Positions 3,443 to 32,326 of a stretch of 34,734 nucleotides of DNA are shown here, piece by piece. The stretch is from the NCBI GenBank assembly GCA_046597055.1, contig JBKJLC010000235.1, positions 1 through 34,734 on the forward strand, written 5' to 3'. The stretch is from Kofleriaceae bacterium (GTDB lineage Bacteria; Myxococcota_A; Polyangia; Haliangiales; Haliangiaceae). Below the pieces are notes generated by a model, which saw nothing but the letters and a program-made list of their open reading frames with translations, searched no databases and had not been told where the DNA came from. The stretch's first letter is position 1; the number at the start of each line of letters is the position of its first letter. Made by a program: the position numbers and the translations under genes.

Positions 3443-4468
<1,026 letters not shown>

Positions 4469-4490: not shown

Positions 4491-5933
<1,443 letters not shown>

Positions 5934-5982
5934 CTGGGGATAGCTTAGCGAAATTCGGCGCCGCGCGCCGCCGCTGGCCAGC

Positions 5983-7185
5983 TCAGGTCTTGGCCGGCGC
6001 CGGCGTCGGCAGGCGGAGCACGAACTGCGGCCCGTCGGCCAGCCCCTCGTAGCGGACCGAGCCGCCGTGGGCATCGAGCGCCAGCCGGCAGAAGTAGAGC
6101 CCGAGCCCGCGCTGACCATCCTTGCCGAGCGCGTACTTCTTGAACAGCCGGGGCTGCAGCGCCGGCGGCACCTGGGGTCCGGTGTTGTGGATCGTGATCT
6201 GGACGCCGGTGCGCTCGCCGTCTTCCCAGGGGGTCGCCGCCAGCCGGATCAGGCCGCTGGGGTTGCAATATCGGACCGAGTTGCCGACCAGGTTGTGGAT
6301 CACGCGCACGATCAGCGCCTCGTCGAAGTGGCCGACCAGGTCGGCATCGCAGGCGACCACGTGGCGGATGTTCCGCCCGATCGACGGCGCGTGCAGCGCC
6401 ATGACCTCGAGCAGGACCTCGCGCAGCTTGACCGGCGCACACCGGACCCGCAGCGCGTCGTCCTCGAACCGGCCGATGTCGACGAAGTTGGCGACCAGGC
6501 CCGACATGCGGCGCAGCGCGCGCAGGGTCGACGTCATCGCCTGGAGATCGTCGCCGGTCACCTCGAGCACCTGCGACAGATACGTGATGTTCGACAGCGC
6601 GACCGCGAGGCCGTTGTTGAGATCGTGAGCGAGCAGCGCGGACGCCTCGGCGCCCCACGCCAGCAGGCGGTCGGCGTGGTCGCGCGCCTGGCGGGCATCG
6701 ATGTAGGCCTGCTGGCTGCGCGCCGACGCGACCACGCGACGCTCGAGCTCGCGGATCGAGATCGGCTTGCTGATGAAGTCGTCGGCGCCGGCATCGAACA
6801 GCGCGACCCGGGTCAGCTCCTCGTCGGTGCCGCTCAGGATCGAGACGTGGACCGCCTGGCCGTGGTTCGCCTTGAGGTACTTCAGCACGTCGAGGCCGCT
6901 GGTCGGCATGCCGAGATCGATCACGGCCAGGTCGGGCGGCGTCTGCTCGGCCCGGGCGATCGCGGCGGCGCCGTCGTCGGCCTGCATGACCTCGAACCCC
7001 AGGCGCGACAGGGCGATGCTGACCGCGCGCCGGACCAGCGGGTCATCGTCGGCGACCAGGACCCGGATCCCGGGGGGAAGGGTCACGCTGGCCGCCAGCG
7101 TCGCGGTGGGGTCCCCGGTCACGTCGAGCCCATGATCGCTCGTCGACATGGCTTCGGTCGCGTCCGAATTCACTTTTTTGGTCAT
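5983..7185 (-). CDS. Cytoplasmic REC-histidine kinase (REC-HisKA-HATPase)
   Basis: VADDD, IDLGMP, SKP; H-box LAHDLNN; N-box HNLVGNS; NTG; GLGL; no obvious TM segment. Confidence 0.9.
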   Translation of the reverse strand: MTKKVNSDATEAMSTSDHGLDVTGDPTATLAASVTLPPGIRVLVADDDPLVRRAVSIALSRLGFEVMQADDGAAAIARAEQTPPDLAVIDLGMPTSGLDVLKYLKANHGQAVHVSILSGTDEELTRVALFDAGADDFISKPISIRELERRVVASARSQQAYIDARQARDHADRLLAWGAEASALLAHDLNNGLAVALSNITYLSQVLEVTGDDLQAMTSTLRALRRMSGLVANFVDIGRFEDDALRVRCAPVKLREVLLEVMALHAPSIGRNIRHVVACDADLVGHFDEALIVRVIHNLVGNSVRYCNPSGLIRLAATPWEDGERTGVQITIHNTGPQVPPALQPRLFKKYALGKDGQRGLGLYFCRLALDAHGGSVRYEGLADGPQFVLRLPTPAPAKT

Positions 7186-7352
7186 TTGCCCCGCCCGTCT
7201 CGTCCGCAAGTCTCCGAGATCGGTGAAGTCCGACCCCGTCAGATCCAGCTTCCTCGATGCCGACCACCGCCGCAACCCATCGGCCCGCCTGGCCCCCCTG
7301 AATGTCCGCCGCGGCTGGCCGATCCAGGCAAGTGCCCACCAGGAGCATCCCC

Positions 7353-8663
7353 ATGGAAGCGTCCCTCTCCACCGACCCGAGCGGCCACACTTACATCCCG
7401 GTCGCGGCGCCGACCTCCGGCTCCCGCCTCGATCCGCTCCAGGTGTGTGACCTCCTGCTCGACGCCGCCCTCGGCAACGAGATCGACACGATCTGGTTCG
7501 AGCCGCGGGCCCCCAGCGAGGAGCACTACGATGTGGCGCTCGAGCGCCAGGGCGTGGTCATGGCGGTCGGCACCCTGGACGCCAACCTCGGGGCCGCGGT
7601 GATCGCCCGACTGGCGATGCTGGCCGACATCGACCTGATGCTGCGGCGGCCCTCCACCGGCCGGACCTTCGTACGAAGCGCTAGCAATGCCGCCGAGATC
7701 GTGGTGACCGTCCGGCCCGGCCGCTCGCTGCGCGCCGAGGTCTTCGTGCGCCGCCAGGGCGCCCGGCCGGTGGTCGCGACCGCGCCGGTCGACCTCGAGC
7801 CGGGCACGATGGTCGGTCACTACCGCGTGCGCTGGCACGTCGGGTCCGGCGGCATGGGACGCGTCTATCAGGTCGAGCACGCGACGCTCGGTCGCGCCTA
7901 CGCGCTCAAGGTGCTCCACGCCCATGCCCGGACGGAAGATCCCGAGAGCAACGCCCGGTTCGTGCGCGAGGCCCGCGCCGCCGCCCGCATCAAGCACCCC
8001 AGCGTCGTCGACGTGTTCGACTTCGGCTACCTGGCCGACGGCCGGCCCTACCTGGTCATGGAGCTGCTGCCCGGCGCCAGCCTCACCGACCTGATGGCCA
8101 ACGGGCCGCTCGAGCCGCGGGTCGGGGTCGCGATCGCCAAGCAGCTCGCGTCCGCGCTCGCCGCCGCCCACGACGTCGGCGTCATCCACGCCGACGTCAG
8201 CCCCTCGAACGTGCTGGTCGGCGGCGATCACGCCGCCAAGCTGGTCGACTTCGGCCTCGCGCTCCTGCGCGACGACACCACCCGGCTCGCCACCGACGAG
8301 GCCGGCGAGTACGTGCTGGGCACACCGTCCTACATCTCGCCCGAGCAGATCCGCGGCCAGGTCGCGGACGAGCGCAGCGACCAGTACGCCCTGGGTGCGG
8401 TCATCTACGAGATGCTGGTCGGCAAGCCGCCGTTCGCCGGCCGCTCGCTGCGCGACCTGTGCCTCAAGCACATCGGGGCCCCGGTGCCCGCGCTGGTGAG
8501 CCCGTTCGGCCCGCTGCCGGTCGAGCTGACCCGCACCGTCGAGCGCTGCCTGGCCAAGACCGCGGACCTGCGGTTCGGCTCGATGCACGAGGTCGCGGCC
8601 GCCTTGGTCGAGGCCGAGCAGGCCGTGTTCGTCCGCGGCTGGCGACGCTGGCTGAGCACCTGA
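7353..8663 (+). CDS. Hanks-type Ser/Thr protein kinase with an N-terminal PilB/GspE-like domain
   Basis: AGGAG RBS; GSGGMGRVY, ALK, HADVSPSN, DFG, GTPSYISPEQ, DQYALG. Confidence 0.88.
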   Translation: MEASLSTDPSGHTYIPVAAPTSGSRLDPLQVCDLLLDAALGNEIDTIWFEPRAPSEEHYDVALERQGVVMAVGTLDANLGAAVIARLAMLADIDLMLRRPSTGRTFVRSASNAAEIVVTVRPGRSLRAEVFVRRQGARPVVATAPVDLEPGTMVGHYRVRWHVGSGGMGRVYQVEHATLGRAYALKVLHAHARTEDPESNARFVREARAAARIKHPSVVDVFDFGYLADGRPYLVMELLPGASLTDLMANGPLEPRVGVAIAKQLASALAAAHDVGVIHADVSPSNVLVGGDHAAKLVDFGLALLRDDTTRLATDEAGEYVLGTPSYISPEQIRGQVADERSDQYALGAVIYEMLVGKPPFAGRSLRDLCLKHIGAPVPALVSPFGPLPVELTRTVERCLAKTADLRFGSMHEVAAALVEAEQAVFVRGWRRWLST

Positions 8664-8694: not shown

Positions 8695-9264
8695 ATGACC
8701 ACCCGCCCCGTCGTGCTGTGCGTCGATGACGATCCCGACATCCTCGCCTCGGTCTCGCGGCTGCTGCGCCGCGACGGCCACGAGGTCGTGCTCGCCAACA
8801 CCCCGGCCGAGGCGCTGGCAGTCCTGTCGACCCGGCCGGTCGACGTGCTGGTCTCCGACTTCGAGATGCCGGACATGAACGGCGTCGAGCTGGCGGTCCG
8901 CGCCCGCGAGGTGCAGCCCGAGACGGTCCGCATCCTCTTGACCGGCCGGAACACGGTCGACACCGTCACCGAGGGCATCAACGTCGGCGAGGTCTACCGC
9001 TTCATCGCCAAGCCGTTCGAACCCGACACGCTGCGGCGCGAGGTGGCCGCGGCGATCGCGCACCACCAGGAGATCGCGGCGGTGTCACAGGAGCGATCGA
9101 CCGTGGTGCGCCGCCAACGCCTGGTGGCCGCGCTCGAGACCGATTTCCCGGGCATCACCTCGGTACCGCGGGATGACACCGGCGCCTACCTGCTCGATCC
9201 CGAGGCCAGCATGCGTCCGGTCGGACCCGAGCTGGCCGCCGTGGCCGCGCTGATCCGACGTTGA
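8695..9264 (+). CDS. Response regulator (REC plus short C-terminal extension)
   Basis: LCVDDD, VSDFEMP, LTG, AKPF; GGAG RBS. Confidence 0.9.
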   Translation: MTTRPVVLCVDDDPDILASVSRLLRRDGHEVVLANTPAEALAVLSTRPVDVLVSDFEMPDMNGVELAVRAREVQPETVRILLTGRNTVDTVTEGINVGEVYRFIAKPFEPDTLRREVAAAIAHHQEIAAVSQERSTVVRRQRLVAALETDFPGITSVPRDDTGAYLLDPEASMRPVGPELAAVAALIRR

Positions 9265-9572: not shown

Positions 9573-10310
9573 TCAGGCGGCGGCGGCGCGCACCGAGGTC
9601 AGCTCTGGCGTGCGCTCGATCTCGGCCCGGAGGCGAACGATCGCGCGGCCATGGAGCTGACAGACGCGCGAGATGGTCACGCCCAGGATCTGGGCGATCT
9701 CCACGTAGGTGAGCTCGTCGCCGTAATAGAGCGACAGCAGCAGCACGTCGCGCTCGCCGAGCCGGCCCAGCGCGCGGCGCACGCGGCCGAGGAGCTGGCT
9801 GCGCTCGGCCTGCTGGGCCGGCGACGAGGTCTCGCGGTCGGCGGGAAGGTCGATGTCGTCGAGCGCGCCCACCGTGACGTGGATTAGCTGCTCGAGGTCG
9901 TTGCGATAGGTCTCGACCGAGACGCCGAGCTTGGCGGCGACCGCCTCGTCGGCGGGCGGGCCGCTGCTGGTCTGCTCGAGCTCGCGGATGGTGGCGCCAA
10001 CCTTGCGCGCCATCTGGCGAACCCGGCGCGGCATGATGTCGCCACGACGCAGCTCGTCGAGGATCGCGCCGCGGATGCGTTTCTCGGCGAAGACCAGGAA
10101 CGGCTCCTGGCGGGTCTCGTCGTAGCGCGCGGCGGCCTCGGCCAGGCCGAGCAGGCCGGCGGAGACCAGGTCATCGGTGCAGATCCATGCCGGGCAGCGC
10201 CGCGCCATCCGGCGGGCGATGCGCTTGGCGACCTCGACATGCTCGGCGATCAGACGGTCACGCGTGGGTGAACGTGGGGTGGTGGCCGAGCGCGAGGTGG
10301 CGTGGGTCAT
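9573..10310 (-). CDS. fliA: FliA/WhiG family RNA polymerase sigma factor (sigma28)
   Basis: DDLVSAGLLGL, RIRGAILDELR..D..PR.VR, LYY.DELT..EIA.ILGVTISRVCQLH; overlaps flhG. Confidence 0.93.
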   Translation of the reverse strand: MTHATSRSATTPRSPTRDRLIAEHVEVAKRIARRMARRCPAWICTDDLVSAGLLGLAEAAARYDETRQEPFLVFAEKRIRGAILDELRRGDIMPRRVRQMARKVGATIRELEQTSSGPPADEAVAAKLGVSVETYRNDLEQLIHVTVGALDDIDLPADRETSSPAQQAERSQLLGRVRRALGRLGERDVLLLSLYYGDELTYVEIAQILGVTISRVCQLHGRAIVRLRAEIERTPELTSVRAAAA

Positions 10311-11188
10311 GGGGCGTCTCCTTGAGCGGTGAGGTGACCGCGGCGGCGCCGCGCGCCTCCCGCTCGCTCATCGGCAAGTGCATCCAGCGCGCCAGCCACG
10401 CGGGCGAACGCACGCGCCGCGGGAGCGTCGGGGTGTAGGCGGACCAGCGGAACCCCGCGCGCCGCAGCCTCGGAGACCGCGGGGTCGGTGGGAATGGCCG
10501 GGAGCGCGGTCAGGCGCAGCTCGAGGAACTGCTCGCTGAGCGCGGTCACGCGCGCGACGATGTCGTCGGCCTGCGCGGCGCTGGTGACCCGGTTGGGCAT
10601 GATGTACGCGTGGCGTCGGCCATGCTCGCGGACGAGCACCTTCAAGCACGCGTAGGCGGCGGCCATCGACACCGGCTCGGGATCGACGACGATCAGGGTG
10701 TCGTCGGCGGCCGCTGCGAACGCGGCCTGGCTGGCGCCGATGCCGGCGGCGACGTCGAGCACGACGGTATCGAAGCGGTGCGAGAGCGAGCGAATCAGCT
10801 CGAGCGCCCGGGCCCGGGCCGCGCCGCCCATGGTCGCCAGCGTGTAGCTGCCGTTGAGCGCAGGCAGGAGCTGCAGGCCGTGGGCGGCGACCAGCACGTC
10901 CTCGATCGGCGTGCCGGCGAGCGCGTCGAGCAGGCTGTGGGTCGGCGCGACGCCGAGCAGGAGGTTGAGGTCGGCCAGGCCGAAGTCGGCGTCGACCATC
11001 AGCGTGCGCGCGCCGCCGGCCGCGTAGGTCGCCGCCAGGTTGACCGCGACCGTGCTCTTGCCGACCCCGCCCTTGCCGCCGGTCACGGCGATCCGCCGCT
11101 CGCGTTGCCGGACGACCGGAGGCTCGCCCGAGATGACGCGAAGCGAGGCACGCAGGTCGGTCACGGCCGGCAAAGCTGCAACCGTCAC
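10307..11188 (-). CDS. flhG: FlhG/FleN (MinD-family) ATPase
   Basis: GGKGGVGKS, DADFGLA, LDVAAGI, PEP.S..AY..LK; directly upstream of fliA. Confidence 0.85.
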   Translation of the reverse strand: MTVAALPAVTDLRASLRVISGEPPVVRQRERRIAVTGGKGGVGKSTVAVNLAATYAAGGARTLMVDADFGLADLNLLLGVAPTHSLLDALAGTPIEDVLVAAHGLQLLPALNGSYTLATMGGAARARALELIRSLSHRFDTVVLDVAAGIGASQAAFAAAADDTLIVVDPEPVSMAAAYACLKVLVREHGRRHAYIMPNRVTSAAQADDIVARVTALSEQFLELRLTALPAIPTDPAVSEAAARGVPLVRLHPDAPAARAFARVAGALDALADERAGGARRRRGHLTAQGDAP

Positions 11189-11282: not shown

Positions 11283-12626
<1,344 letters not shown>

Positions 12627-12638
12627 GTGGCATCGTAC

Positions 12639-12673
12639 CGGAACCGATCGGCTCCACGGAACCGTTCGGCTCC
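12639..12673. promoter_or_regulatory. Tandem imperfect palindromes, candidate activator binding sites (UAS)
   Basis: CGGAACCGATCGGCTCC (12639-12655) and CGGAACCGTTCGGCTCC (12657-12673), 16/17 identical. Confidence 0.6.
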
Positions 12674-12715
12674 GTCTTCGTGGCCGCAACCAATGGGAAC
12701 TGTACGCACCTGGAT

Positions 12716-15991: not shown

Positions 15992-17434
15992 TCACCTCAC
16001 CACGCCCTCACGCACCACCCCCGGCCGCCGTCCCAGCCACACGCACCACGACGGCGTGCACCGCAGCACGTCCCAGCCGAGCTCGGCCGTCGTCAGCCGC
16101 GCCACGTCGGTTGGCTGCCGCGGCGCGCCGGCCGCCGCCAGCAGGTACACCCGCTCGATCCCGTCCGCCGCCGACACCAGCGGCGGCTCGCCGCCGACCA
16201 GCTGGGTCCGGCACCCGGCATACCAGCCCACCTGCGGACGCGTCCCGGTGTAGACGATGCACCGCCGCCCGGCCACATCGTCCCCGACCTGCCGCGCGGC
16301 CTCGGCGAGCGGGCCGTGCAGGGTCCGCCGGTGGCCGAGTCGCACGTGGACGACGACCAGCGCGGCGACCACGCTGGCCAGCGCCAGCACGGTCGTCACG
16401 GCCCGCAGGCGCACCCGCGTCGGCGCCGACAGCCACCCGGCGCCGACGATCGCGAGCACGGTCGTCGCGAAGAAAACGTAGCGCGGCTCGCCGTGGGCGC
16501 GGGCGCCGAGGAGCACCCCCTGCGCGAGCGCGACGAGCACCAACAGCCGCCGCACCCGACCGCTCGCCATCGCGGCGCCGCCGCGCCGCCACGCATGCAA
16601 CCCGACCGCGGCGCCGAGCCCGACGACCACGCCCATCAGCGGCCCGGCCAGCGCCCACGGCCACCGGGTCGCGTAGTAGATCAGCCCCTCGCCCGGGTAG
16701 ATCTGGTTGGCGGCGTCGGACGCGATGCGCAACACGCCGAACGCCGACCCGGTGCGCGCCGCGCTCCACAGCAGGAACGGCCCGAGCAACGCGATCGTCG
16801 CCGTGCCCGCGAGCACGATCGCGCGCCGACGCGTCGGGTAGACCAGCGCGGCCCCGGCGAGGATCGCGGCCACGGTCGGCGCCGAGCCGTAGCGGACGTA
16901 CACGGCGAGCGCCGCCAGCACCGCGATCGCGAGCCACCGGCCCGGACCCGCGCGAGGGCGCTCGGCGTCGTCGGTGATCAGCAGCACGATGGCCAGCAGG
17001 AGCGCGGCGGTCGGGATGTCGGACAGCGCCTCGAACGCGCGCACCAGCCAGGGCGCAGCACCGACCTGCAGGAGCACCGCGAGCCCGGCCGTACGCGGGC
17101 CCGCCCAGCATCGGGCCGCCCGCGCGACCAGCGCGAGATACCCGAGCGCGAACCCGACGAACGGCGCCCGCACCAGCCAGTCAGCGCCGCCGGCGGCCAC
17201 GCCCGGGACGGCCAGCACGCGCATCCCGACCGACCGATACAGCGGGTACGGATCGACGTCGGCGACCAGGAGGCCACGGGCGCCGAGCGCGTACTGGGCC
17301 TCGTCGTTGCCGAGCGGGCTCGGCCGCGCGAGCACGCTGATCGCGGCGAGCGTCAGCAGCGCCGCGACCGCGGGTGTCAGCCAGCGCGCGGTCAGGAGCG
17401 CGTCGAGACGCGGGGGCCGGGGCGCCGACGTCAT
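15992..17434 (-). CDS. Multi-pass membrane GT-C glycosyltransferase (ArnT/PMT-like)
   Basis: DE.QY after the first TM segment, many hydrophobic segments, LSD.P and EPRY motifs. Confidence 0.7.
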   Translation of the reverse strand: MTSAPRPPRLDALLTARWLTPAVAALLTLAAISVLARPSPLGNDEAQYALGARGLLVADVDPYPLYRSVGMRVLAVPGVAAGGADWLVRAPFVGFALGYLALVARAARCWAGPRTAGLAVLLQVGAAPWLVRAFEALSDIPTAALLLAIVLLITDDAERPRAGPGRWLAIAVLAALAVYVRYGSAPTVAAILAGAALVYPTRRRAIVLAGTATIALLGPFLLWSAARTGSAFGVLRIASDAANQIYPGEGLIYYATRWPWALAGPLMGVVVGLGAAVGLHAWRRGGAAMASGRVRRLLVLVALAQGVLLGARAHGEPRYVFFATTVLAIVGAGWLSAPTRVRLRAVTTVLALASVVAALVVVHVRLGHRRTLHGPLAEAARQVGDDVAGRRCIVYTGTRPQVGWYAGCRTQLVGGEPPLVSAADGIERVYLLAAAGAPRQPTDVARLTTAELGWDVLRCTPSWCVWLGRRPGVVREGVVR

Positions 17435-17441
17435 GCGCGGC

Positions 17442-18815
17442 TCAGAGCGGATCGTGGCCGGGCGCGACCACGACGGGCCACTGCCAGCCCCCGGCCAGGA
17501 GCTCGCGCCAGCCGGTCAGGCTGGCGCCGGTGACGATCACGACCCGACGGCCGCGCCGCTCGGCGGCGGTGATCCGGCCGTCGCTGCCGAGCCAGCGGAC
17601 GTGGCCGGTCGCGGTCGCGAGCCGGGTGCCGACGACCATCTCGTCGAGCGCGGCGCCGAGCGCGTCCCAGAACTCGACCGCGTCGAGGTCGGTGTCCCAG
17701 GTGGTGACCGCGACCGCGCTGGTGCCGGCCGGGAACGCCGCGGCGCTGGCGCCGCCGTAGAGCGCGACCCGATCACCGCCCCACCCGGCCACGGCCGACC
17801 CCGCGGTGGCGGCGCCCACGCCGTGGGTCTCGAGGAAGCGGGCCCAACCGGCCTCGCCCCACACGTCATGATGAATCGTCCGGGAACCGGACGTCGCCGG
17901 CGGCGGCCCGGCGGTGATCTGATCGGGCCGCTCGTCCGCCAGGTACAGCTCGGGGTGCAGGATCTGCTCGGTCGAGCGCGGCGGGTGCTTGAACGCCTGG
18001 TCGACCCGGGTCCACGGGTGGACCCGGCGCAGGTGCGCGACGAACCTCGCGCCGGCCTGGTACGGAAAGACCAGCGACTGCCGCACCAGCAGCGGCGCCT
18101 GGCCGAGCAGGTCGTCGCCGCCCTCCAGGTTTGCCGTCAACATGCGCACCAGCAGCTCGTTGCCCCACGGCGCCGGCTGGCCCTGCTCGGCCAGCGTGTA
18201 CTCGAGCATGAGGACGACGCCGTCGCCCTCGACCAGGGCCTGGCGCGCTGCGGTGGCGTCACCGTCGCCCTCGACCTCATCCATCCACTTCTCGAGCCCG
18301 AAGTGCTGGTCCTGCAGCGCGTGGTCGATCTCGTGCGCCATCACCATGTCGGCCCAGGTCTGGTCGAAGTCGGGGCGGACCGTGATGTAGAGCTTCTGCT
18401 CCCTGGGGTCGTAGAAGCCGGCGATCTGCTCGGTCATCAGGTCGAGCATCAGCGCGTCGAGATCGGTCGCCATCGGGACCAGGCCCCATCGCTTGAGCGC
18501 GGCGGCCTCGGCGGCGCGTTCGGCCGGCGCCTGATCCTCGTCGCGGCTCGCGACGATCCGCTTGCGCAGGTCGTCGTGGCTCATCACGCCCTTGGCGATC
18601 GGACGCTTCATCTTCAGCCCGCGCAGCCGGGCGACCTTGCGGGCGATGCCGTCGGCGCGCGCGGCCAGGTGCTTGCTCCAGTCGCCGCCGGCCGGCTGGG
18701 TCGCGCGCGCGTCGTCGGCGCGCGCCCCGCCCGACACCGCCAGGAAGCCGGTGGCCGCGGCGAGCACCACGCCGAGCGCCACCGTGAGCTGCGACCAACG
18801 GCGGCGACGCGGCAT
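17442..18815 (-). CDS. Exported zincin-like metalloprotein
   Basis: Signal peptide; AGFYDP, AHEIDHALQDQHF, ALVEGDG, FPY..G, PP.STEQILHPE.Y, GWGGDR. Confidence 0.8.
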   Translation of the reverse strand: MPRRRRWSQLTVALGVVLAAATGFLAVSGGARADDARATQPAGGDWSKHLAARADGIARKVARLRGLKMKRPIAKGVMSHDDLRKRIVASRDEDQAPAERAAEAAALKRWGLVPMATDLDALMLDLMTEQIAGFYDPREQKLYITVRPDFDQTWADMVMAHEIDHALQDQHFGLEKWMDEVEGDGDATAARQALVEGDGVVLMLEYTLAEQGQPAPWGNELLVRMLTANLEGGDDLLGQAPLLVRQSLVFPYQAGARFVAHLRRVHPWTRVDQAFKHPPRSTEQILHPELYLADERPDQITAGPPPATSGSRTIHHDVWGEAGWARFLETHGVGAATAGSAVAGWGGDRVALYGGASAAAFPAGTSAVAVTTWDTDLDAVEFWDALGAALDEMVVGTRLATATGHVRWLGSDGRITAAERRGRRVVIVTGASLTGWRELLAGGWQWPVVVAPGHDPL

Positions 18816-18891: not shown

Positions 18892-19635
18892 TCAGGTCGC
18901 GCCAGGCGGGGCCTCACCGGGAGCCGGCGCCGGCACGTCGACCGCCCCGCTCTTGACCAGCTTGCGCGCGACGATCCCGGAGATCAGGGCGCAGATCAGG
19001 CCGCCGGTCCACCCGGCCAGCACGTCGGTCGGGTAGTGAACCCCGAGGTAAACCCGGGTCGAACCGATCAGCACCGCGAGGAACACGCTGACGACGACCG
19101 AGAACACCCGGAGTGGCCCCTGCGGCAGCACCCGCGCGAGCAGCACGCCGAGCGTCAGGTACAGCGCGGTCGACATCATCGAGTGACCGCTCGGGAACGA
19201 CAGGCCGTGCGGGAGGTCGATGTGGCTGACCACCGACGGCCGGGGCCGCTCGTAGAGGAGCTTCAGCGCCGTCATCAGGCCCGCGGTGGCGGCGGCCGAC
19301 ACCCCGACCAGGATCGCGTAGCGCGCGCGGCGCGCCAGCAGCAGCGCGATCACCGCCAGGGTCGAGAACAGCCCGATGATGGTGCCCGAGCCCAGCGCCG
19401 AGAAGTTCAGCATCATCGCCTCGACCCAGGGCGGGCCGACCGGATCGTCGGGCGCGGACCGCACCGCGAGCAGGATCCGCTCGTCGAACGCCTGGAGGTC
19501 GAGCTCGGCCACCTCGTCGCCGAGCCACAGGAACAGCATGATGAGGACCCCGAGCGCGGCCAGCTCCGCGAACAGCCGCAGGTCGGCGTCGCGCAGCCAG
19601 GGCACACGGGCGGTCAGCGCCGCGCGGATTGCCAT
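18892..19635 (-). CDS. PAP2-family membrane phosphatase
   Basis: K....R.RP, SFPSGHS, TRVYLGVHYPTDVLAG. Confidence 0.92.
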   Translation of the reverse strand: MAIRAALTARVPWLRDADLRLFAELAALGVLIMLFLWLGDEVAELDLQAFDERILLAVRSAPDDPVGPPWVEAMMLNFSALGSGTIIGLFSTLAVIALLLARRARYAILVGVSAAATAGLMTALKLLYERPRPSVVSHIDLPHGLSFPSGHSMMSTALYLTLGVLLARVLPQGPLRVFSVVVSVFLAVLIGSTRVYLGVHYPTDVLAGWTGGLICALISGIVARKLVKSGAVDVPAPAPGEAPPGAT

Positions 19636-19783
19636 CACCAAGCCTAGCCCGGACCTGCGAACGCGCTCCTCCGAGGGGCACGATGACGCGCGATCCCTGG
19701 CGAATCCTGCCTGCGCGCGCGCCGGCGCGCGGCCTCGCGGTCGAGGCCAGCTCACCGGCGGACCCCGTGCTAGCTTGCGCCGC

Positions 19784-23380
<3,597 letters not shown>

Positions 23381-23408
23381 GCAAAAAGCCGAGTCGCGAA
23401 AGGTAGTT

Positions 23409-24485
23409 ATGCGTATCGTCACACTGTCGCTGCTGTCGATCCTGTCATTCGGCGGAGTCGCGACGCTGGTCGCCGGCTGCCAGGAAGACAACAAGGCGAG
23501 CCGCGCCAAGAAGGCCGGGGCCCAGCCCGCGCAGGCCGGGACCGATCTCAACCTGGCGCTCGCCAAGGTCGACGACGTGACGATCACCGTCGGGGAGCTG
23601 CAGGAGCGGCTCAACCGGCAGTCGCCATACATCCGCGCTCGCTACACCTCGCTCGAGCAGAAGAAGGAGTTCCTCGACAGCCTCGTCCGCTTCGAGGTGC
23701 TGGCCAAGGAGGCGCAGCGCCGGGGCTTCGACAAGGATCCGGAAGTGGTCCGGACCATGAAGCAGGTGATGATCCAGAAGCTGATGAAGGACGAGTTCGA
23801 GACCCGGGTGACGCCCGAGTCGATCACGGACGCCGAGATCAAGGCCTACTACGACGGCCACCTCGACGAGTTCGTGAAGCCGGAGGAGGTCCGCGCCTCG
23901 GGCATCGTGGTCAAGACCAAGGCCCAGGCCGAGCGGGTCGCGGCCGAGGCCGCCGGCGACGCCGGCAAGACCAACAAGAGCTTCCGCGACCTGGTCACGA
24001 CCTACTCGTCGCACGAGGACACCAAGCAGCGCGGCGGCGACCTCCGCTACATGACCGCCGCGACCAAGGACTGGCCCAAGCCGGTCAAGGACGCCACGTT
24101 CGCGCTGGCCAACACCGGCGACGTGTCGGGCGTGGTCGACGCCGGCGACGGCACGTTCTGGGTGCTCAAGCAGACCGGGCGCCGCAAGGCGATGACCCGC
24201 AACCTCGAGGACGCCGCCCAGCAGATCCGCAACAAGCTCTATCGCGAGAAGCGGGTCGAGACCCAGAAGCAGTTCATCGCGGCGCTCGAGGCCAAGGCCA
24301 AGGTCGTCGTCGACGAGGCCAACCTGGGCAAGGTCCGCATCGACACCTCGACCGGTGGCGGCGGCGACCCGCATGGCGAGACCCTGCCGATGCCCGACCT
24401 GACCAATCCGCCGGCCGAGGCGCCCTCCGCCATGCCGCCCCCGGTGGCGCCGCCGACCACTCCCGCGCCGCCCGCTGGCAAGTGA
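23409..24485 (+). CDS. PpiC/parvulin-type peptidyl-prolyl isomerase, lipoprotein
   Basis: VAGC lipobox; LAKV....IT..EL, YS....TK.RGGDL; follows mfd. Confidence 0.88.
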   Translation: MRIVTLSLLSILSFGGVATLVAGCQEDNKASRAKKAGAQPAQAGTDLNLALAKVDDVTITVGELQERLNRQSPYIRARYTSLEQKKEFLDSLVRFEVLAKEAQRRGFDKDPEVVRTMKQVMIQKLMKDEFETRVTPESITDAEIKAYYDGHLDEFVKPEEVRASGIVVKTKAQAERVAAEAAGDAGKTNKSFRDLVTTYSSHEDTKQRGGDLRYMTAATKDWPKPVKDATFALANTGDVSGVVDAGDGTFWVLKQTGRRKAMTRNLEDAAQQIRNKLYREKRVETQKQFIAALEAKAKVVVDEANLGKVRIDTSTGGGGDPHGETLPMPDLTNPPAEAPSAMPPPVAPPTTPAPPAGK

Positions 24486-24532
24486 CCGGACAACCCACCG
24501 CCGCTCCTGGCAGTCTCACCGTCGAGCCCATC

Positions 24533-25543
24533 ATGCGCCGTCTCCTCGCCAGCCTCGTGACCGTCCTCGTCGCCACCGCGCTCACGGCGCCGGCGTTCGC
24601 CCAGCCGAAGCGCTCGGATCCCAAGCGGACCCGGCGGGCGTACGTCATCGATCGCGTGGTCGCGGTCGTGAACGACGCGGTGGTGCTCAACAGCGAGCTC
24701 GAGGTCCGCATGGTCCCGTACCTCGCCGACGTCGAGAACATGCCCGATCTCAAGGAGCGGGCGCGCCGGACCGAGAAGCTGCGCGGCCAGGTCCTCGACG
24801 AGATGGTCAACGAGGAGCTGATCTTCCAGGCCGCGACCGAGGCCCACATCGAGATCGAGGCCAAGGAGCTCGATGCCGCGGTCAAGGACGTCCGCGAGCA
24901 GAACAAGCTCGACGAGGCCGGCTTCCAGCAGGCGCTGACCGCCCAGGGCTACACCCTCGGCCAGTACCGCCAGGACATGCGCCGGCAGCTGACCCGGCTC
25001 AAGGCGATGAACCAGCTGGTCGCGCCCAAGGTCACCATCACTGACGACGAGGTCCGCGCCCGCTACGACCAGATGCAGCGGCGCTCGGAGGCGGTCAGCG
25101 CGGTGCGGCTGTCGCACATCCTGTTCGCGCTGCCCGAGCGGCCGAGCGAGGCCGAGATCGCCGGGGCCAAGGCCAAGGCGGCGGCGGCGATGACCCGGGT
25201 CAAGGCCGGCGAGCCGTTCGCCAAGGTCGCCAGCGAGGTCACCGAGGACGAGGGCACCAAGGCCGGCGGCGGCGAGCTCGGCTGGATCGAGCGCGGCTCG
25301 CTCGACCCGGCGTGGGAGTCGGTCGTGTTCGGGATGGACAAGGACGACGTCCGCGGTCCGATCAACGGCCCGACCGGCCTGCACGTCTTCTTCGTCGCCG
25401 AGGTCAAGCGCAACGACATGAAGACCTTCGACCAGCTCAAGGAGCAGCTCCGGGGCGAGCTACGGCGGCGCGAGATGGAGAAGCAGACCAACCAGTGGAT
25501 CGAGGAGCTGCGCAAGAAGGCGTTCCTCGACATGAAGCTGTAG
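24533..25543 (+). CDS. surA: SurA-like chaperone/PPIase
   Basis: Signal peptide; IDRVVAVVND..VL.SEL, LSHIL, GGELGW, W.EELRKKA. Confidence 0.85.
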   Translation: MRRLLASLVTVLVATALTAPAFAQPKRSDPKRTRRAYVIDRVVAVVNDAVVLNSELEVRMVPYLADVENMPDLKERARRTEKLRGQVLDEMVNEELIFQAATEAHIEIEAKELDAAVKDVREQNKLDEAGFQQALTAQGYTLGQYRQDMRRQLTRLKAMNQLVAPKVTITDDEVRARYDQMQRRSEAVSAVRLSHILFALPERPSEAEIAGAKAKAAAAMTRVKAGEPFAKVASEVTEDEGTKAGGGELGWIERGSLDPAWESVVFGMDKDDVRGPINGPTGLHVFFVAEVKRNDMKTFDQLKEQLRGELRRREMEKQTNQWIEELRKKAFLDMKL

Positions 25544-29052: not shown

Positions 29053-32000
29053 CTACGCCGGGTGGACGTAGACGAAGTCGGACGGTGGCTCGAACCGGTA
29101 GCCGTCCTCGGTGACGCGGATGATCTCGGCGCCGTCTTCGCCGAGCAGGCGGCGGATGCGCATGATGTTGGTGAACAGCGCGGCGTCGTGGCGCAGCGGG
29201 TGGTAGGCGACGTTCCACACGGTCTGCACGATCTCTTCTTTCGAGAAGGTGCGGTTGGGCGCGGCCGCGAACAGGAACAGCAGCTTCTTGAGCAGGCTGC
29301 GACGGCGCAGGTCGGCGAGCTCGGTGCCCTTGCGCCAGATGGTCTCGCGGACGGCGTCGACCGCGAGGGTCCGGGTCGACAGGCGCAGCACCTCGGGGTC
29401 GGCGTCGGCGATCTCGCTGACCAGGCCGGCAGCGTCAACGATCCGGAACGGGCGGATCGCGGTCAGGCCGAGGTCGGTGAGCAGGCGGCCGGCCGCCTCG
29501 ATCGCGTGCTGGGTCATCGCGGCGGCCGCGCCCGAGCCGCCGACGGCGTAGGGATCGCCGCCGGTGATCGCATCGAGGGCGGCGGTCGCCGCCAGGCGCT
29601 CGACCGGCAGCCCGGCGTGCTGCGCGAGATCGGCAGCGTCGCGCGCGTAGGTGGCGGCCGAGGTGAGGTCGCCGTCGTCGCGGGCGAGCGAGGCGAGCGC
29701 GAGCAGCGCGTGGGCGCGCGACCGGATCAGCCCGGCGACCGCGGCCTCGCGGGCCGCGCGGCTGGCCTGGGCGCGGGCGCCGGCGCGATCGCCCTTGGCG
29801 AGCTCGAGGCGACAGCCGACCACGAGGGCCTCGGCCAGATCCGCGGCGCGGCCCGAGCGCTCGGCGGCGGCGGCGACCCGGCGGGCGGCCGACAGCGCGC
29901 GCCCGATGTCGCCGGCGGCGGTGGCGACCCGCGCCTCGGCGAGATCGCGCTCGAGCTCGCTGACCAGCTCGTCGGAGCCGGCGCTGCGGCCGGCGTCGAC
30001 CGCGCCGGCGCGCTGGCCGGAGGCGGCCCGGGCCTCGGCCGACAGCTGGGCGGCGCGGACCGCCGAGCTGGCCGGGAGCGCCTGCGAGGCGGTGAGGCGC
30101 TCGAGCGCCTCGCGGGCGCGATCGAGGCGCATCTCGCCGAGATCGACCGCGGCCAGCACGACCGACGCGCGATCGGCGAGCGCGGCCAGGCCGAGCCGGG
30201 TCGACTGCGAGCGGGCCGCGGTGGCGAGCTCGGCCGCGCGCGACAGATCGCCCCGGCGCATCTCGACCTCGGCCAGCGACAGCTCGGCCAGGAGCGCGCC
30301 CAGCTCGTCGCCGCGAGCGCGGCGGGCGACCACGTTGGCCGACAGCCGGCGCACCGCGCCCTCGCAGTCGCCGTGCATCAGGTCGAGGGCGGCGCGGGTC
30401 TCGTTGATCTGCTCGACCACCGGCACCGCATCGAGGCCGCGGGTGCGGGCGAGCGCGTCGTCGAGCGCGGCGCGAGCCTCGCCCAGCCGGCCCTCGCGGG
30501 CGAGGCAACCGGCGCGGCGGGCCTCGATGGTCGCGCCGAGCTCGTCGGACGCCGCGTCGCTCGACGCGAGCGCGCCAGCGGCGCGGGTCAGGGTGGCCCG
30601 GACCGCGGTCGGGTGGCCCTCGTGTTCGTCGACCGCGGCGAGCGCGACCAGGAGGTGCGCCCGCCCCTCGGGCAGCACCGCGGCCTTGAGCGCGCCGTCG
30701 ATCCGCGTGCGGGCGTCGGCCGGCCGGCCGCGCAGGAGGTCGAGCTCGGCGTGCATCGCGGCGCCGCGCGCGTAGGCCACCGTCGGGCCGATCGGGATCG
30801 CGGCCAGCCGGCGGATCGCGCCATCGATATCGCCGCCGGCCAGGGCCAGCTCGGCCGCGAGCACCGGCGACACCCCGATCGCGCCGGCGGCGGCCAGCCG
30901 CTCGCTCGCCTCGGCCACCCGGCCGGCCCGCGCCGCGAGCTCGACCAGCAACACCGCCAGCTCGGGGTCGGCGCTCGGCCCGATCGCGGCGATCAGGCTC
31001 TCGACCTCACCGCCGGCGCCACGCCGGGCCAGCACGTCGGCGTGCTCGGTCAGCCGCTTGATCGCCTCGGCCACCTCGCCGGCCGCGAGGTGGTGCAAGA
31101 CCGCCTCCCGCAGGCGATCGACCAGATCGAGCGCGACCAGGGCACCGTCGTCGGTGGAGCCGGGCGCGACGAGGCGGGCCGCGGCGCGCTCGAGCGGCAG
31201 CCGCTCCTCGATCGTGAGCGCCGCCATGACCTGGTCCTGCACCAGATCGTGGACGCGCAACCGGCCGGCGTCGTCGCAGTCGACCAGCTGGCGCGCGACC
31301 AGCCCGGTCACCGCCTCGTCGTACGCGGCCGCCGCCACCTCGGGCGCCAGCGCGGCCACTGCCGCCGGCAGGACCGGCAACCGCAGCACCGCGAGCACCG
31401 CCAGCACCCGCCGGGCGTCCTGACCGAGCGCTGGCAACGACCAGGCGTCGTCGCCGAAGCGCGCGCGGGCGTACTCGCGACGGAGCAGCAGCGGCAGGCC
31501 GCGGGTGCGCAGCAGCGCGGGCGCGACCTCGCCGGCGGGGCCATACGCGTCGACCAGGCCGCGCCACAGCGCCTCGGCGCTGGCGTCGTCGAGGCCGCCC
31601 AGCTCGAGCTCGTTGCGATCGAGATCCCCCGGCAGCAGGAGCGGCTCGCGGGCGACCGCGATCACGCGCCCGAGCGCGTCCGCGGCCGGCGCCAGCGCGG
31701 CGATCAGGCGCGCCGCCTCGTCGGGCGGCAGGTGGTGGAGGTCGTCGATGACGAGGAGCTGGGACTCCTGCGCCAGCGCCTCGGCCATGCCGCCGGGCGG
31801 GCAGCGCAGCTTGCGCTCGGCGCGCGACCGCACCGCCGGCGCGCGCTCGCCGGGGAAGCAGCGCACCATCGTCGTCGTCACCTCGAGCATGAGCGCGAGG
31901 TGCTCGAGCAGCGAGGTCTTGCCGGCGCCGATCGAGCCATACAGCACGGCGAGCGGCGCGCCGGCGAGGTGCTCGCGAAGCTCGGTGAGCTCGGGCTCGC

Positions 32001-32073
32001 GTCCGACGAACGAAGGTGGCCCCGGCACGCGCCGGTGCGGCGGCTGCATCGTCGTGGCACGGCGTCGGCTCAT
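29053..32073 (-). CDS. STAND/MalT-like regulator: P-loop NTPase, TPR-like helical repeats, C-terminal OmpR-type winged helix
   Basis: FVGRE.EL, GSIGAGKT, LLVIDDLH; Ala/Leu/Arg helical repeats; SKEEI...VW...NI.RIRRLL.....I.....GYRF; alternative start 32049. Confidence 0.85.
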   Translation of the reverse strand: MSRRRATTMQPPHRRVPGPPSFVGREPELTELREHLAGAPLAVLYGSIGAGKTSLLEHLALMLEVTTTMVRCFPGERAPAVRSRAERKLRCPPGGMAEALAQESQLLVIDDLHHLPPDEAARLIAALAPAADALGRVIAVAREPLLLPGDLDRNELELGGLDDASAEALWRGLVDAYGPAGEVAPALLRTRGLPLLLRREYARARFGDDAWSLPALGQDARRVLAVLAVLRLPVLPAAVAALAPEVAAAAYDEAVTGLVARQLVDCDDAGRLRVHDLVQDQVMAALTIEERLPLERAAARLVAPGSTDDGALVALDLVDRLREAVLHHLAAGEVAEAIKRLTEHADVLARRGAGGEVESLIAAIGPSADPELAVLLVELAARAGRVAEASERLAAAGAIGVSPVLAAELALAGGDIDGAIRRLAAIPIGPTVAYARGAAMHAELDLLRGRPADARTRIDGALKAAVLPEGRAHLLVALAAVDEHEGHPTAVRATLTRAAGALASSDAASDELGATIEARRAGCLAREGRLGEARAALDDALARTRGLDAVPVVEQINETRAALDLMHGDCEGAVRRLSANVVARRARGDELGALLAELSLAEVEMRRGDLSRAAELATAARSQSTRLGLAALADRASVVLAAVDLGEMRLDRAREALERLTASQALPASSAVRAAQLSAEARAASGQRAGAVDAGRSAGSDELVSELERDLAEARVATAAGDIGRALSAARRVAAAAERSGRAADLAEALVVGCRLELAKGDRAGARAQASRAAREAAVAGLIRSRAHALLALASLARDDGDLTSAATYARDAADLAQHAGLPVERLAATAALDAITGGDPYAVGGSGAAAAMTQHAIEAAGRLLTDLGLTAIRPFRIVDAAGLVSEIADADPEVLRLSTRTLAVDAVRETIWRKGTELADLRRRSLLKKLLFLFAAAPNRTFSKEEIVQTVWNVAYHPLRHDAALFTNIMRIRRLLGEDGAEIIRVTEDGYRFEPPSDFVYVHPA

Positions 32074-32098
32074 GAGGGGCACGTCGCGGTAACGTTTA

Positions 32099-32114
32099 CG
32101 CAAGCCTCGTGCCG
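32099..32114 (-). promoter_or_regulatory. Sigma54 promoter of the STAND regulator
   Basis: Minus strand CGGCACG-AGGC-TTGCG, near-consensus TGGCACG-N4-TTGC. Confidence 0.75.
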
Positions 32115-32326
32115 CTGCGACGCCGCGTCGTCGCACGCGCAGATGGTGATGGTAGCAGAGCTTTTTGTTTGCACGGCGCGCGCTGCTGCGACGAACGAGT
32201 CTCGATCGGGCTCGCCGCTGGGGAGTTTCGCCACGGACGCGCGCCCACATGTGCGCCTGGAACCGACGGCCGTCACCGCCTGCGTCGGCGGCCTCTTTCG
32301 AGCGCCAGCGCCGCCTCGCGTCGCGG

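Follow-up and report, generated by a model that had tools for sequence, protein, structure and literature searches.

A Hanks-type kinase with an N2-like domain of the PilB/GspE type, encoded beside two-component genes in Kofleriaceae

An N2-like domain ahead of a protein kinase

The window analysed here is a 34,734-nucleotide (nt) stretch of contig JBKJLC010000235.1 from an uncultured Kofleriaceae bacterium represented by a metagenome-assembled genome (GCA_046597055.1). Within it lies a gene whose predicted product (P0001) joins an N-terminal domain resembling the N2 domain of PilB/GspE ATPases to a Hanks-type Ser/Thr kinase domain. A response regulator gene follows it, a gene for a hybrid REC–histidine kinase lies divergently upstream, and this trio of genes is conserved (Table 1). 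The kinase frame is open for 453 codons counted from its first ATG (7302..8663, forward strand). We take the ATG at 7353 as the start because an AGGAG motif lies 7 nt upstream of it and alignments of orthologs begin only at about residues 19–32; the initial annotation, made from the sequence before any search, had chosen this same, better start, and the peptide strings it quoted are present in the translation. The G+C fraction at third codon positions is 0.95, like that of the other genes of the window, in which G+C content is 70–78%. The protein is predicted to be cytoplasmic, and no hydrophobic segment was noticed in its sequence. To our knowledge, N2 has so far been met only in PilB/GspE/PilT-type motors, where it forms the N-terminal half of the catalytic unit; its occurrence apart from the ATPase and in one chain with a kinase was thus not expected.

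Searched as a single sequence, the N-terminus gave only weak profile matches. Pfam T2SSE (PF00437) aligned at E 0.007 over profile positions 13–110 of 370, with 12.6–15.5 bits against a cut-off of 24.9, and NCBIfam models aligned with residues ~30–120 (GspE, E 1.9e-4; TfpB, 3e-4; PilB, 1.9e-3), the protein staying under the curated GspE and PilB cut-offs (12–20 bits against 617–850). Judged by sequence comparison, the similarity is far beyond chance once a family profile is used. A word-indexed search with residues 1–155 returned nine more proteins of 391–458 amino acids (aa) with the same two-part architecture, and the N-terminal parts of 10 orthologs were aligned into a profile (A2). Compared with PDB sequences, this profile ranked four PilB chains at the top, all matched on the N2 region (E 0.017–0.21). 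In the bacterium's own 8.4-Mb genome, translated in six frames, it recovered first itself, next a paralog on contig C240 (E 1.2e-6) and, third, a true T2SSE ATPase on contig C193, matched on its N2 region (E 0.0024). Searched exhaustively against 1.84 billion representative proteins, A2 gave 112 matches at E ≤ 1e-3, seven of which are true T2SSE ATPases matched on their N2 region (library-wide E 2.1e-5 to 9.3e-4). Alignment of A2 with these seven by hhalign reached 97.7% probability (E 1.6e-12), a figure biased by the selection of the set with the same profile. The comparison was for that reason repeated with four ATPases of the same genome picked by PF00437 only, and it gave 78% probability (E 1.8e-5) over 90 columns covering T2SSE positions 9–99.

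The T2SSE consensus reads ASDIHIEP...RFRIDG...SRLKIMAxLDIAERRLPQDGR...DLRVSVLP, and its counterpart in the kinase family reads ADTIWFEP...IERQG...ARLAMLAxVDLxARRxxTGR...EIVVTxRPG. The motifs follow one another as in N2 (A-D-x-I-x-x-E-P, then R-L-x-x-x-x-x-x-D and a T/S-x-x-P-G segment). In P0001, RxDG and PQDG align to ERQG and PSTG and RVS is degenerate too, and the pair of arginines ahead of the PQDG equivalent is retained in most orthologs. Fourteen positions within residues 51–123 are invariant in at least 19 orthologs. In PilT-like ATPases, two arginine fingers are completely conserved, according to McCallum et al. 2017 (PMC5424180). The RecA-like ATPase domain, with its Walker A and B, Asp and His boxes, is missing from P0001: the T2SSE match ends at profile position 110, and residues 158–408 are kinase.

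Predicted structure gave the same assignment. AlphaFold2, run on A2, modelled residues ~30–135 with a predicted local distance difference test score (pLDDT) above 90, as a helix with three strands followed by another helix with three strands. All 26 Foldseek matches in the PDB at E ≤ 1e-3 were PilB, PilF, GspE, EpsE or BfpD, followed by DotB and PilT. The best was 5zfr_C (E 6.9e-8), and the top matches superposed over 107–113 columns with root mean square deviations from 1.6 Å. VIA-align, which is independent of Foldseek, was run against 48,161 chains and ranked EpsE (Z 16.0), GspE (16.0), BfpD (14.2), PilT (10.6), DotB (10.5), PilB (8.9) and CpaF (8.8), its best PAS/GAF rows reaching Z 3.9–4.2; the Pfam scan of P0001 contained no PAS or GAF domain. 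Because the top matches of both methods are all N2 domains of secretion ATPases, we assign residues ~26–135, as modelled, to a divergent homolog of N2 that is closest to the PilB/GspE clade, and not to a generic PAS-like module. The initial annotation had read the first ~135 residues in this way, including the order of the motifs and the degeneration of RiDG and PQDG, and the T2SSE, GspE and PilB profiles, the PilB chains of the PDB, hhalign, Foldseek and VIA-align all bear that reading out.

In the full-length model, the predicted template modelling score (pTM) is 0.64 and linker residues 136–142 have pLDDT below 50, so that the N2-like domain looks tethered, not rigidly packed on the kinase. 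Rigid packing of the two domains was considered and dropped on the same pTM and low-confidence linker, which speak neither way.

Residues 158–408 match Pfam Pkinase (PF00069; E 8e-41, 140.6 bits against a cut-off of 31.7) and, over the kinase domain only, the NCBIfam model of PknB-type kinases (E 6.5e-75), which places them in the protein kinase family and agrees with the earlier observation that a kinase stands in place of the RecA domain. Across 19 orthologs, G164, G166, G167 and G169, K186, E206, D281, N286, D299-F300-G301, T324, P330-E331, D343 and R407 are invariant, and because the canonical catalytic residues are thus preserved, the kinase is predicted to be active. The catalytic loop HADVSPSN departs from HRDxKxxN: it has neither the arginine of RD kinases nor the loop lysine, residues by which the RD subclass and the typical Ser/Thr loop are recognised, and on which superfamily membership does not depend. 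The non-RD HAD (residues 279–281) had already been noticed in the initial annotation and is at least 90% conserved in the 19 orthologs; the missing lysine is an addition to it. Among 122 family proteins, loops were found in 57 (HRD in 23, HAD in 20, HGD in 4, HSD and HCD in 3 each, HLD in 2, HFD and HND in 1 each), and the wider family therefore holds both RD and non-RD kinases; the close subfamily P0001–P0010 is uniformly HAD. The pattern H-A-D-V-S/T-P-x-N resembles the loops of Rio/Bud32-type kinases, a likeness with which weak RIO1 and Bud32 profile matches are in keeping. Behind the kinase domain, G429, W430 and R431 are invariant in the 19 orthologs; the G-W-R(-R-W-L) tail to which they belong (residues 429–436, positions 8637–8660) could be a docking or membrane-association motif.

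Set against N2 of PilB, GspE, EpsE, PilF and BfpD (the N-terminal third of PF00437), the domain shares fold, order of elements, order of motifs and detectable homology. Unlike the PilB/GspE ATPases, the protein continues into a kinase and has no RecA-like domain, Walker motifs or zinc-binding cysteines; its motifs are degenerate, its scores fall below every curated cut-off and its gene is not near pilus or secretion genes. With PknB-type Hanks kinases it has in common a full kinase domain, the catalytic residues and a predicted cytoplasmic location, whereas its accessory domain is N2-like, not PASTA, FHA or TPR, and its loop is of the H-A-D-V-S/T-P-x-N form. T2SSE proteins with MshEN/N1 or with a C-terminal receiver show that other N2 proteins, too, are wired to signalling domains, REC included; those proteins keep their ATPase, whereas the N2–kinase family has lost it or never had it. 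One such protein among the matches, P0107 (782 aa), is a genuine T2SSE ATPase with a C-terminal receiver. The available part of a classification of prokaryotic kinases (PMC2877116) gives no secretion-ATPase domain among the domains linked to kinases. Searches of open-access text found no report of a T2SSE domain combined with a kinase, in keeping with the earlier remark that the architecture seemed undescribed, and public records name these proteins only Ser/Thr kinase or protein kinase.

Spread of the family

Classified by Pfam, 52 of the 112 representative matches carry Pkinase downstream of the N2-like match. Besides the seven ATPases, the others include two proteins with a receiver and no kinase call, four repeat proteins with many short matches, which we regard as spurious, and 47 proteins without a Pfam family at E ≤ 1e-4. 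Of these 47, 43 are 56–228 aa long and may be fragments or stand-alone domains, and four are longer than 370 aa. Long family-less matches were looked at as possible kinase-free forms and set aside: P0017, P0047, P0050, P0021 and P0012 match kinases weakly and over part of the domain, and their gene calls are probably broken. No kinase match was seen in P0092, another long match without a family.

The 21 related loci in named genomes all come from metagenome-assembled genomes labelled Kofleriaceae, Myxococcales or Deltaproteobacteria. Among 301 genomes sampled across the phylum, with 13 candidates scored per genome, A2 was positive (E ≤ 1e-6) in at least nine, a count to be read as a lower bound: all five sampled from the window's family together with the window's own genome, the single genome of a second family of the same order, and two others. 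The N2–kinase fusion is a real, conserved family concentrated in Kofleriaceae.

An apparent N2 copy without a kinase, in locus L030, proved to be what is left of a tandem module copy, decayed and broken in frame. L030 (8001–8300) and L023 lie on one contig, which thus carries a second, tandem module with sigma-54 activators, a hybrid REC–histidine kinase and an N2-like gene; the N2–kinase gene of L030 decays after ~90 codons, and FliL-like and NeuB-like genes then follow. In the ESM Atlas, a comparison of language-model features likened the N2-like domain to clusters of ~115–130-aa 'hypothetical proteins', in part with a T2SSE annotation (score 0.88–0.90, a lead only). These proteins come from Gemmatimonadota, Armatimonadota and Myxococcota and may be stand-alone N2-like proteins.

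Conserved neighbours and a proposed coupling to the response regulator

Neighbouring genes were compared by searching the proteins of the window against the 21 related loci with tblastn. The response regulator gene begins 31 base pairs (bp) past the kinase stop, and the two are likely co-transcribed. Its receiver scores 83 bits against the REC cut-off of 30.2, and D11, D12, D55, T83 and K106 are invariant in 19 orthologs, as expected of a member of that family; the pattern RR..LE..PGI..R is conserved in its C-terminal extension. A homolog lies directly downstream of the kinase in 19 of the 21 loci, its alignment starting 9–56 bp after the kinase stop; the distance is 151 bp in one locus with a broken frame, and in another the two overlap. 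The two exceptions are L029, where the contig ends inside the kinase gene, and the decayed copy in L030. A homolog of the hybrid REC–histidine kinase is divergent upstream in 16 of the 21 loci; in a more distant subgroup, a REC–EAL gene replaces it (L027 and L036) or lies one gene further out (L033).

Table 1. Coordinates of the N2-like/kinase gene, its parts and its neighbours in the window
Feature	Position	Strand	Basis and remarks
N2-like/Ser-Thr kinase coding sequence	7353..8663	+	436 aa plus stop (P0001); alternative upstream ATG at 7302
Shine-Dalgarno-like AGGAG	7341..7345	+	Read off the sequence
Unconserved N-terminus, residues 1-25, predicted disordered	7353..7427	+	pLDDT < 50; no conservation in the alignment
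N2-like domain, residues 26-135, order alpha-3 beta-alpha-3 beta	7428..7757	+	AlphaFold2, Foldseek, VIA-align, profile matches
Linker between N2-like and kinase domains, residues 136-157, predicted flexible	7758..7823	+	pLDDT < 50 at 136-142 in the full-length model
Hanks-type protein kinase domain, residues 158-408	7824..8576	+	Pfam Pkinase, PknB-type model, invariant residues
Catalytic loop HADVSPSN, residues 279-286	8187..8210	+	Pattern search over the family; A280 at least 90% conserved
Long C-terminal helix with conserved G-W-R-R-W-L tail, residues 411-436	8583..8660	+	Residues 411-431 modelled as a helix
Response regulator, 189 aa, REC and conserved ~70-aa C-terminal extension	8695..9264	+	Pfam REC, E 2.1e-23
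Hybrid REC-histidine kinase	5983..7275	-	Pfam REC and HATPase_c; start probably inside the listed frame; divergent from the kinase gene
NtrC-type sigma-54 activator (REC, AAA+, helix-turn-helix)	4491..6119	-	Homolog beside the hybrid kinase in many loci
Sigma-54 activator without receiver	3443..4468	+	Syntenic in several loci
FliA/sigma-28-type sigma factor	9573..10310	-	NF005413 FliA, 208.2 against 201; TIGR02479 FliA_WhiG, 195.7 against 189.6
MinD/ParA-type ATPase beside fliA	10307..11188	-	FlhG-like position; possibly FlhG, judged by gene order

The receiver and the N2–kinase also occur as one protein. The paralog on C240 (L002:802-2616, forward strand; 604 aa) consists of a receiver, a linker, an N2-like domain and an HRD kinase; over the stretch that starts midway through the N2-like domain and closes with the kinase, its identity with P0001 is 42%. 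The N-terminal 160 residues of the paralog align with residues 7–154 of the window's response regulator without a gap at 34% identity, past REC and into the conserved extension. The genome has at least 61 REC matches, and of these that response regulator is the best non-self match of the C240 receiver (86.7 bits; the next has 71.4) and gives the longest alignment. The same fusion recurs in nine further 90%-identity clusters of 586–603 aa (44–51% identity over 94–97% of the query region), one of which is labelled Kofleriaceae protein kinase, and in P0095, and the C240 gene is therefore not an artefact. Compared with receiver–kinase fusions at large, the N2-like domain here always stands between receiver and kinase. 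Read from the sequences, the repeated retention of a receiver of the operon partner's type, fused ahead of the N2–kinase, is classical evidence for functional coupling.

A complex of the full-length kinase (alignment A3, 19 rows) with the response regulator (A4, 19 rows) was predicted together with three controls. The interface score ipSAE was 0.57 (0.56, 0.57 and 0.59 in separate runs), the best of the three controls scoring 0.00. At least 77% of contacts were common to the runs, and the pLDDT of the partner was at least 77. In calibration, 116 of 157 solved complexes and two of 215 mismatched pairs reached the pass mark, with scores of up to 0.60 accounting for 18 of the 157 solved complexes and for both mismatches that passed. 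A pass at or below 0.60 is thus more often wrong than right unless the pairing is already likely; gene order and fusion supplied that prior, and the predicted complex lends weak support to a kinase–response regulator pair.

Flagellar genes lie near the module in some loci. FliL follows the response regulator directly in L020, L021 and L028, loci that also hold NeuB, CMP-sugar synthase, MptE-like and ParA/MinD-like proteins, and MotA and MotB lie in L017; HDOD proteins occur in the L017 and L023 loci. Myxobacteria are usually described as non-flagellated. In the genome of the window, FlhA and two flagellin-like genes lie on another contig (G000:C73:34174-36138 and 46098-47450); the estimated contamination of this genome is 7.55%, and a genome of the same genus (G150, 1%) has flagellin as well. 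A strictly flagellar role, suggested by the FliA, MinD-like, FliL, MotA/MotB and NeuB/Maf-type neighbours, was nevertheless rejected on the distribution of flagellin given below, and these genes are kept as partial context.

An activator of sigma-54 with an N-terminal FHA domain, a reader of phospho-threonine, is encoded at 11283-12689 on the reverse strand. It was considered as a target of the kinase and set aside, as it is never the best-matching window protein anywhere in the 21 loci.

Possible roles of the N2-like domain and the rest of the window

The structural and evolutionary observation is well supported. As to mechanism, we infer that the N2-like domain, held by a flexible tether, is a docking or control module through which the Hanks kinase is coupled to the downstream response regulator, so that the locus joins a phosphorelay to Ser/Thr phosphorylation; we put the probability of this reading at somewhat under one half (about 0.45). 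The response regulator, probably in its phosphorylated form, would bind the kinase and switch it, or would be its substrate; the N2-like domain would be the contact site or adaptor for the response regulator; the hybrid histidine kinase would feed the response regulator; and the output may bear on motility-related regulation in flagellated members. A flexible linker, as modelled, fits a tethered docking module. The locus has features of known cases in which two-component systems and Hanks kinases interact: genes for a receiver protein and a hybrid histidine kinase adjoin the kinase gene, and some paralogs have the receiver fused to the kinase. The conserved fusion, in a fixed operon with two-component proteins, shows that the N2 fold is able to serve as an independent module. 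Myxobacterial kinomes are very large and mostly uncharacterised, and the locus, should the domain turn out to be an adaptor that binds a receiver or a motor, would offer a concrete example in which an exchange between two-component and Ser/Thr signalling could be put to the test in these bacteria.

Several points weigh against coupling to the response regulator. Adjacency and fusions show functional linkage, not direct binding, and the receiver is N-terminal in the fusions, whereas the separate response regulator gene sits downstream. The score of the predicted complex is only a weak pass and does not assign the contact with the response regulator to either the N2-like or the kinase domain; all structural statements come from predicted models built on shallow alignments (10 and 19 rows). 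With neither the RD arginine nor the loop lysine, the protein could be a weak or atypical kinase. The upstream partner varies, with REC–EAL immediately upstream in L027 and L036 and neither gene in L024, L025 and L035. The association with flagella is incomplete: only five of the nine N2–kinase genomes gave a flagellin match (123 of 301 overall), and three genomes of the same family that are 97–98% complete (G115, G245 and G290) have the kinase and no flagellin match.

A bolder version, which we think doubtful, is that N2 has been recruited to work on its own as an adaptor, reading receiver phosphorylation and switching the kinase, and that it might still recognise a PilB/PilT/GspE-type ATPase domain and so link the regulation of motility genes to the state of the motor. 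Such an adaptor would be a previously unrecognised route by which His–Asp phosphorelays are wired into Ser/Thr phosphorylation. A receiver- or motor-binding adaptor of this kind would found a new class of accessory domain for bacterial Hanks kinases.

The domain could instead act in cis or between copies of the kinase, by packing on the N-lobe or by oligomerisation, and have no partner protein outside the kinase; the response regulator would then be just a substrate, or share the operon without being related in function. Accessory domains and dimerisation control many Hanks kinases, and the N2-like domain is almost always found with a kinase, most matches other than the 52 described above being short fragments. 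In the related ATPases, the nucleotide on the catalytic domain is closed in by N2, as PMC5424180 describes. The full-length model, however, has no confident packing of the domains (pTM 0.64, linker pLDDT < 50), and the recurrent REC fusion and the strict adjacency of the response regulator argue that the receiver belongs to the mechanism. We consider action in cis unlikely on this balance.

The initial annotation had proposed that the kinase docks on, or monitors, type IV pilus or type II secretion system (T2SS) machinery, and the locus does not favour that idea. Pfam found no pilus or T2SS component among the 18 + 8 open reading frames of the window (34.7 kb) or among the 78 within 8 kb at 10 full-length orthologous loci, where the conserved neighbours are two-component proteins. 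Spelled out, the N2-like domain would dock on the C-terminal domain (CTD) of a PilB/PilT/GspE-type ATPase and mimic the contact between N2D(n) and CTD(n+1), so that the kinase is recruited to the motor, monitors it or poisons it. That contact, of ~1,600 Å2, is the main one between chains in the ATPases, according to PMC5424180. The nearness of the domain to the PilB/GspE clade in sequence and fold and its flexible tether would suit such docking, as would 14 T2SSE-family matches elsewhere in the genome, six of them (L008–L013) spanning nearly the whole profile and two being PilT-like; RxDG, PQDG and RVS, which are characteristic of real N2 domains, are degenerate. We judge docking on a motor distinctly improbable.

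Use of the domain as a sensor of a small molecule (a nucleotide or second messenger), in the manner of PAS or GAF, seems very unlikely to us. The fold of N2 and of the PilT N-terminal domain does resemble PAS/GAF-like folds at a low level (Z ~4), and genes related to cyclic di-GMP lie near some loci (REC–EAL in L027, L033 and L036; HDOD in L017 and L023), but the likeness is far weaker than that to N2 (Z 4 against 16), and we know of no ligand for an isolated N2 domain. That the domain is a functionless leftover of a gene fusion is hardly credible for all the degeneration of its characteristic N2 motifs, given its invariant positions, its retention in distant HRD-type relatives and in REC-fused paralogs, and its well-folded prediction.

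Coupling of the kinase to its response regulator remains the reading that we favour, and the other genes of the window are recorded here in their own right. Two adjacent large open reading frames of 480 and 457 aa (15992-18815, reverse strand) match no Pfam family, the second scoring 132.7 bits with the Hvo_1808 surface-protein family, below its cut-off of 200. A frame of 1065 aa (29053-32250, reverse strand) has as its sole Pfam match a C-terminal OmpR-type DNA-binding domain, Trans_reg_C, its first ~980 residues being without a family. Housekeeping genes occupy 19376-25543 on the forward strand, where the transcription-repair coupling factor Mfd/TRCF is followed by two PpiC/SurA-type peptidyl-prolyl isomerases.

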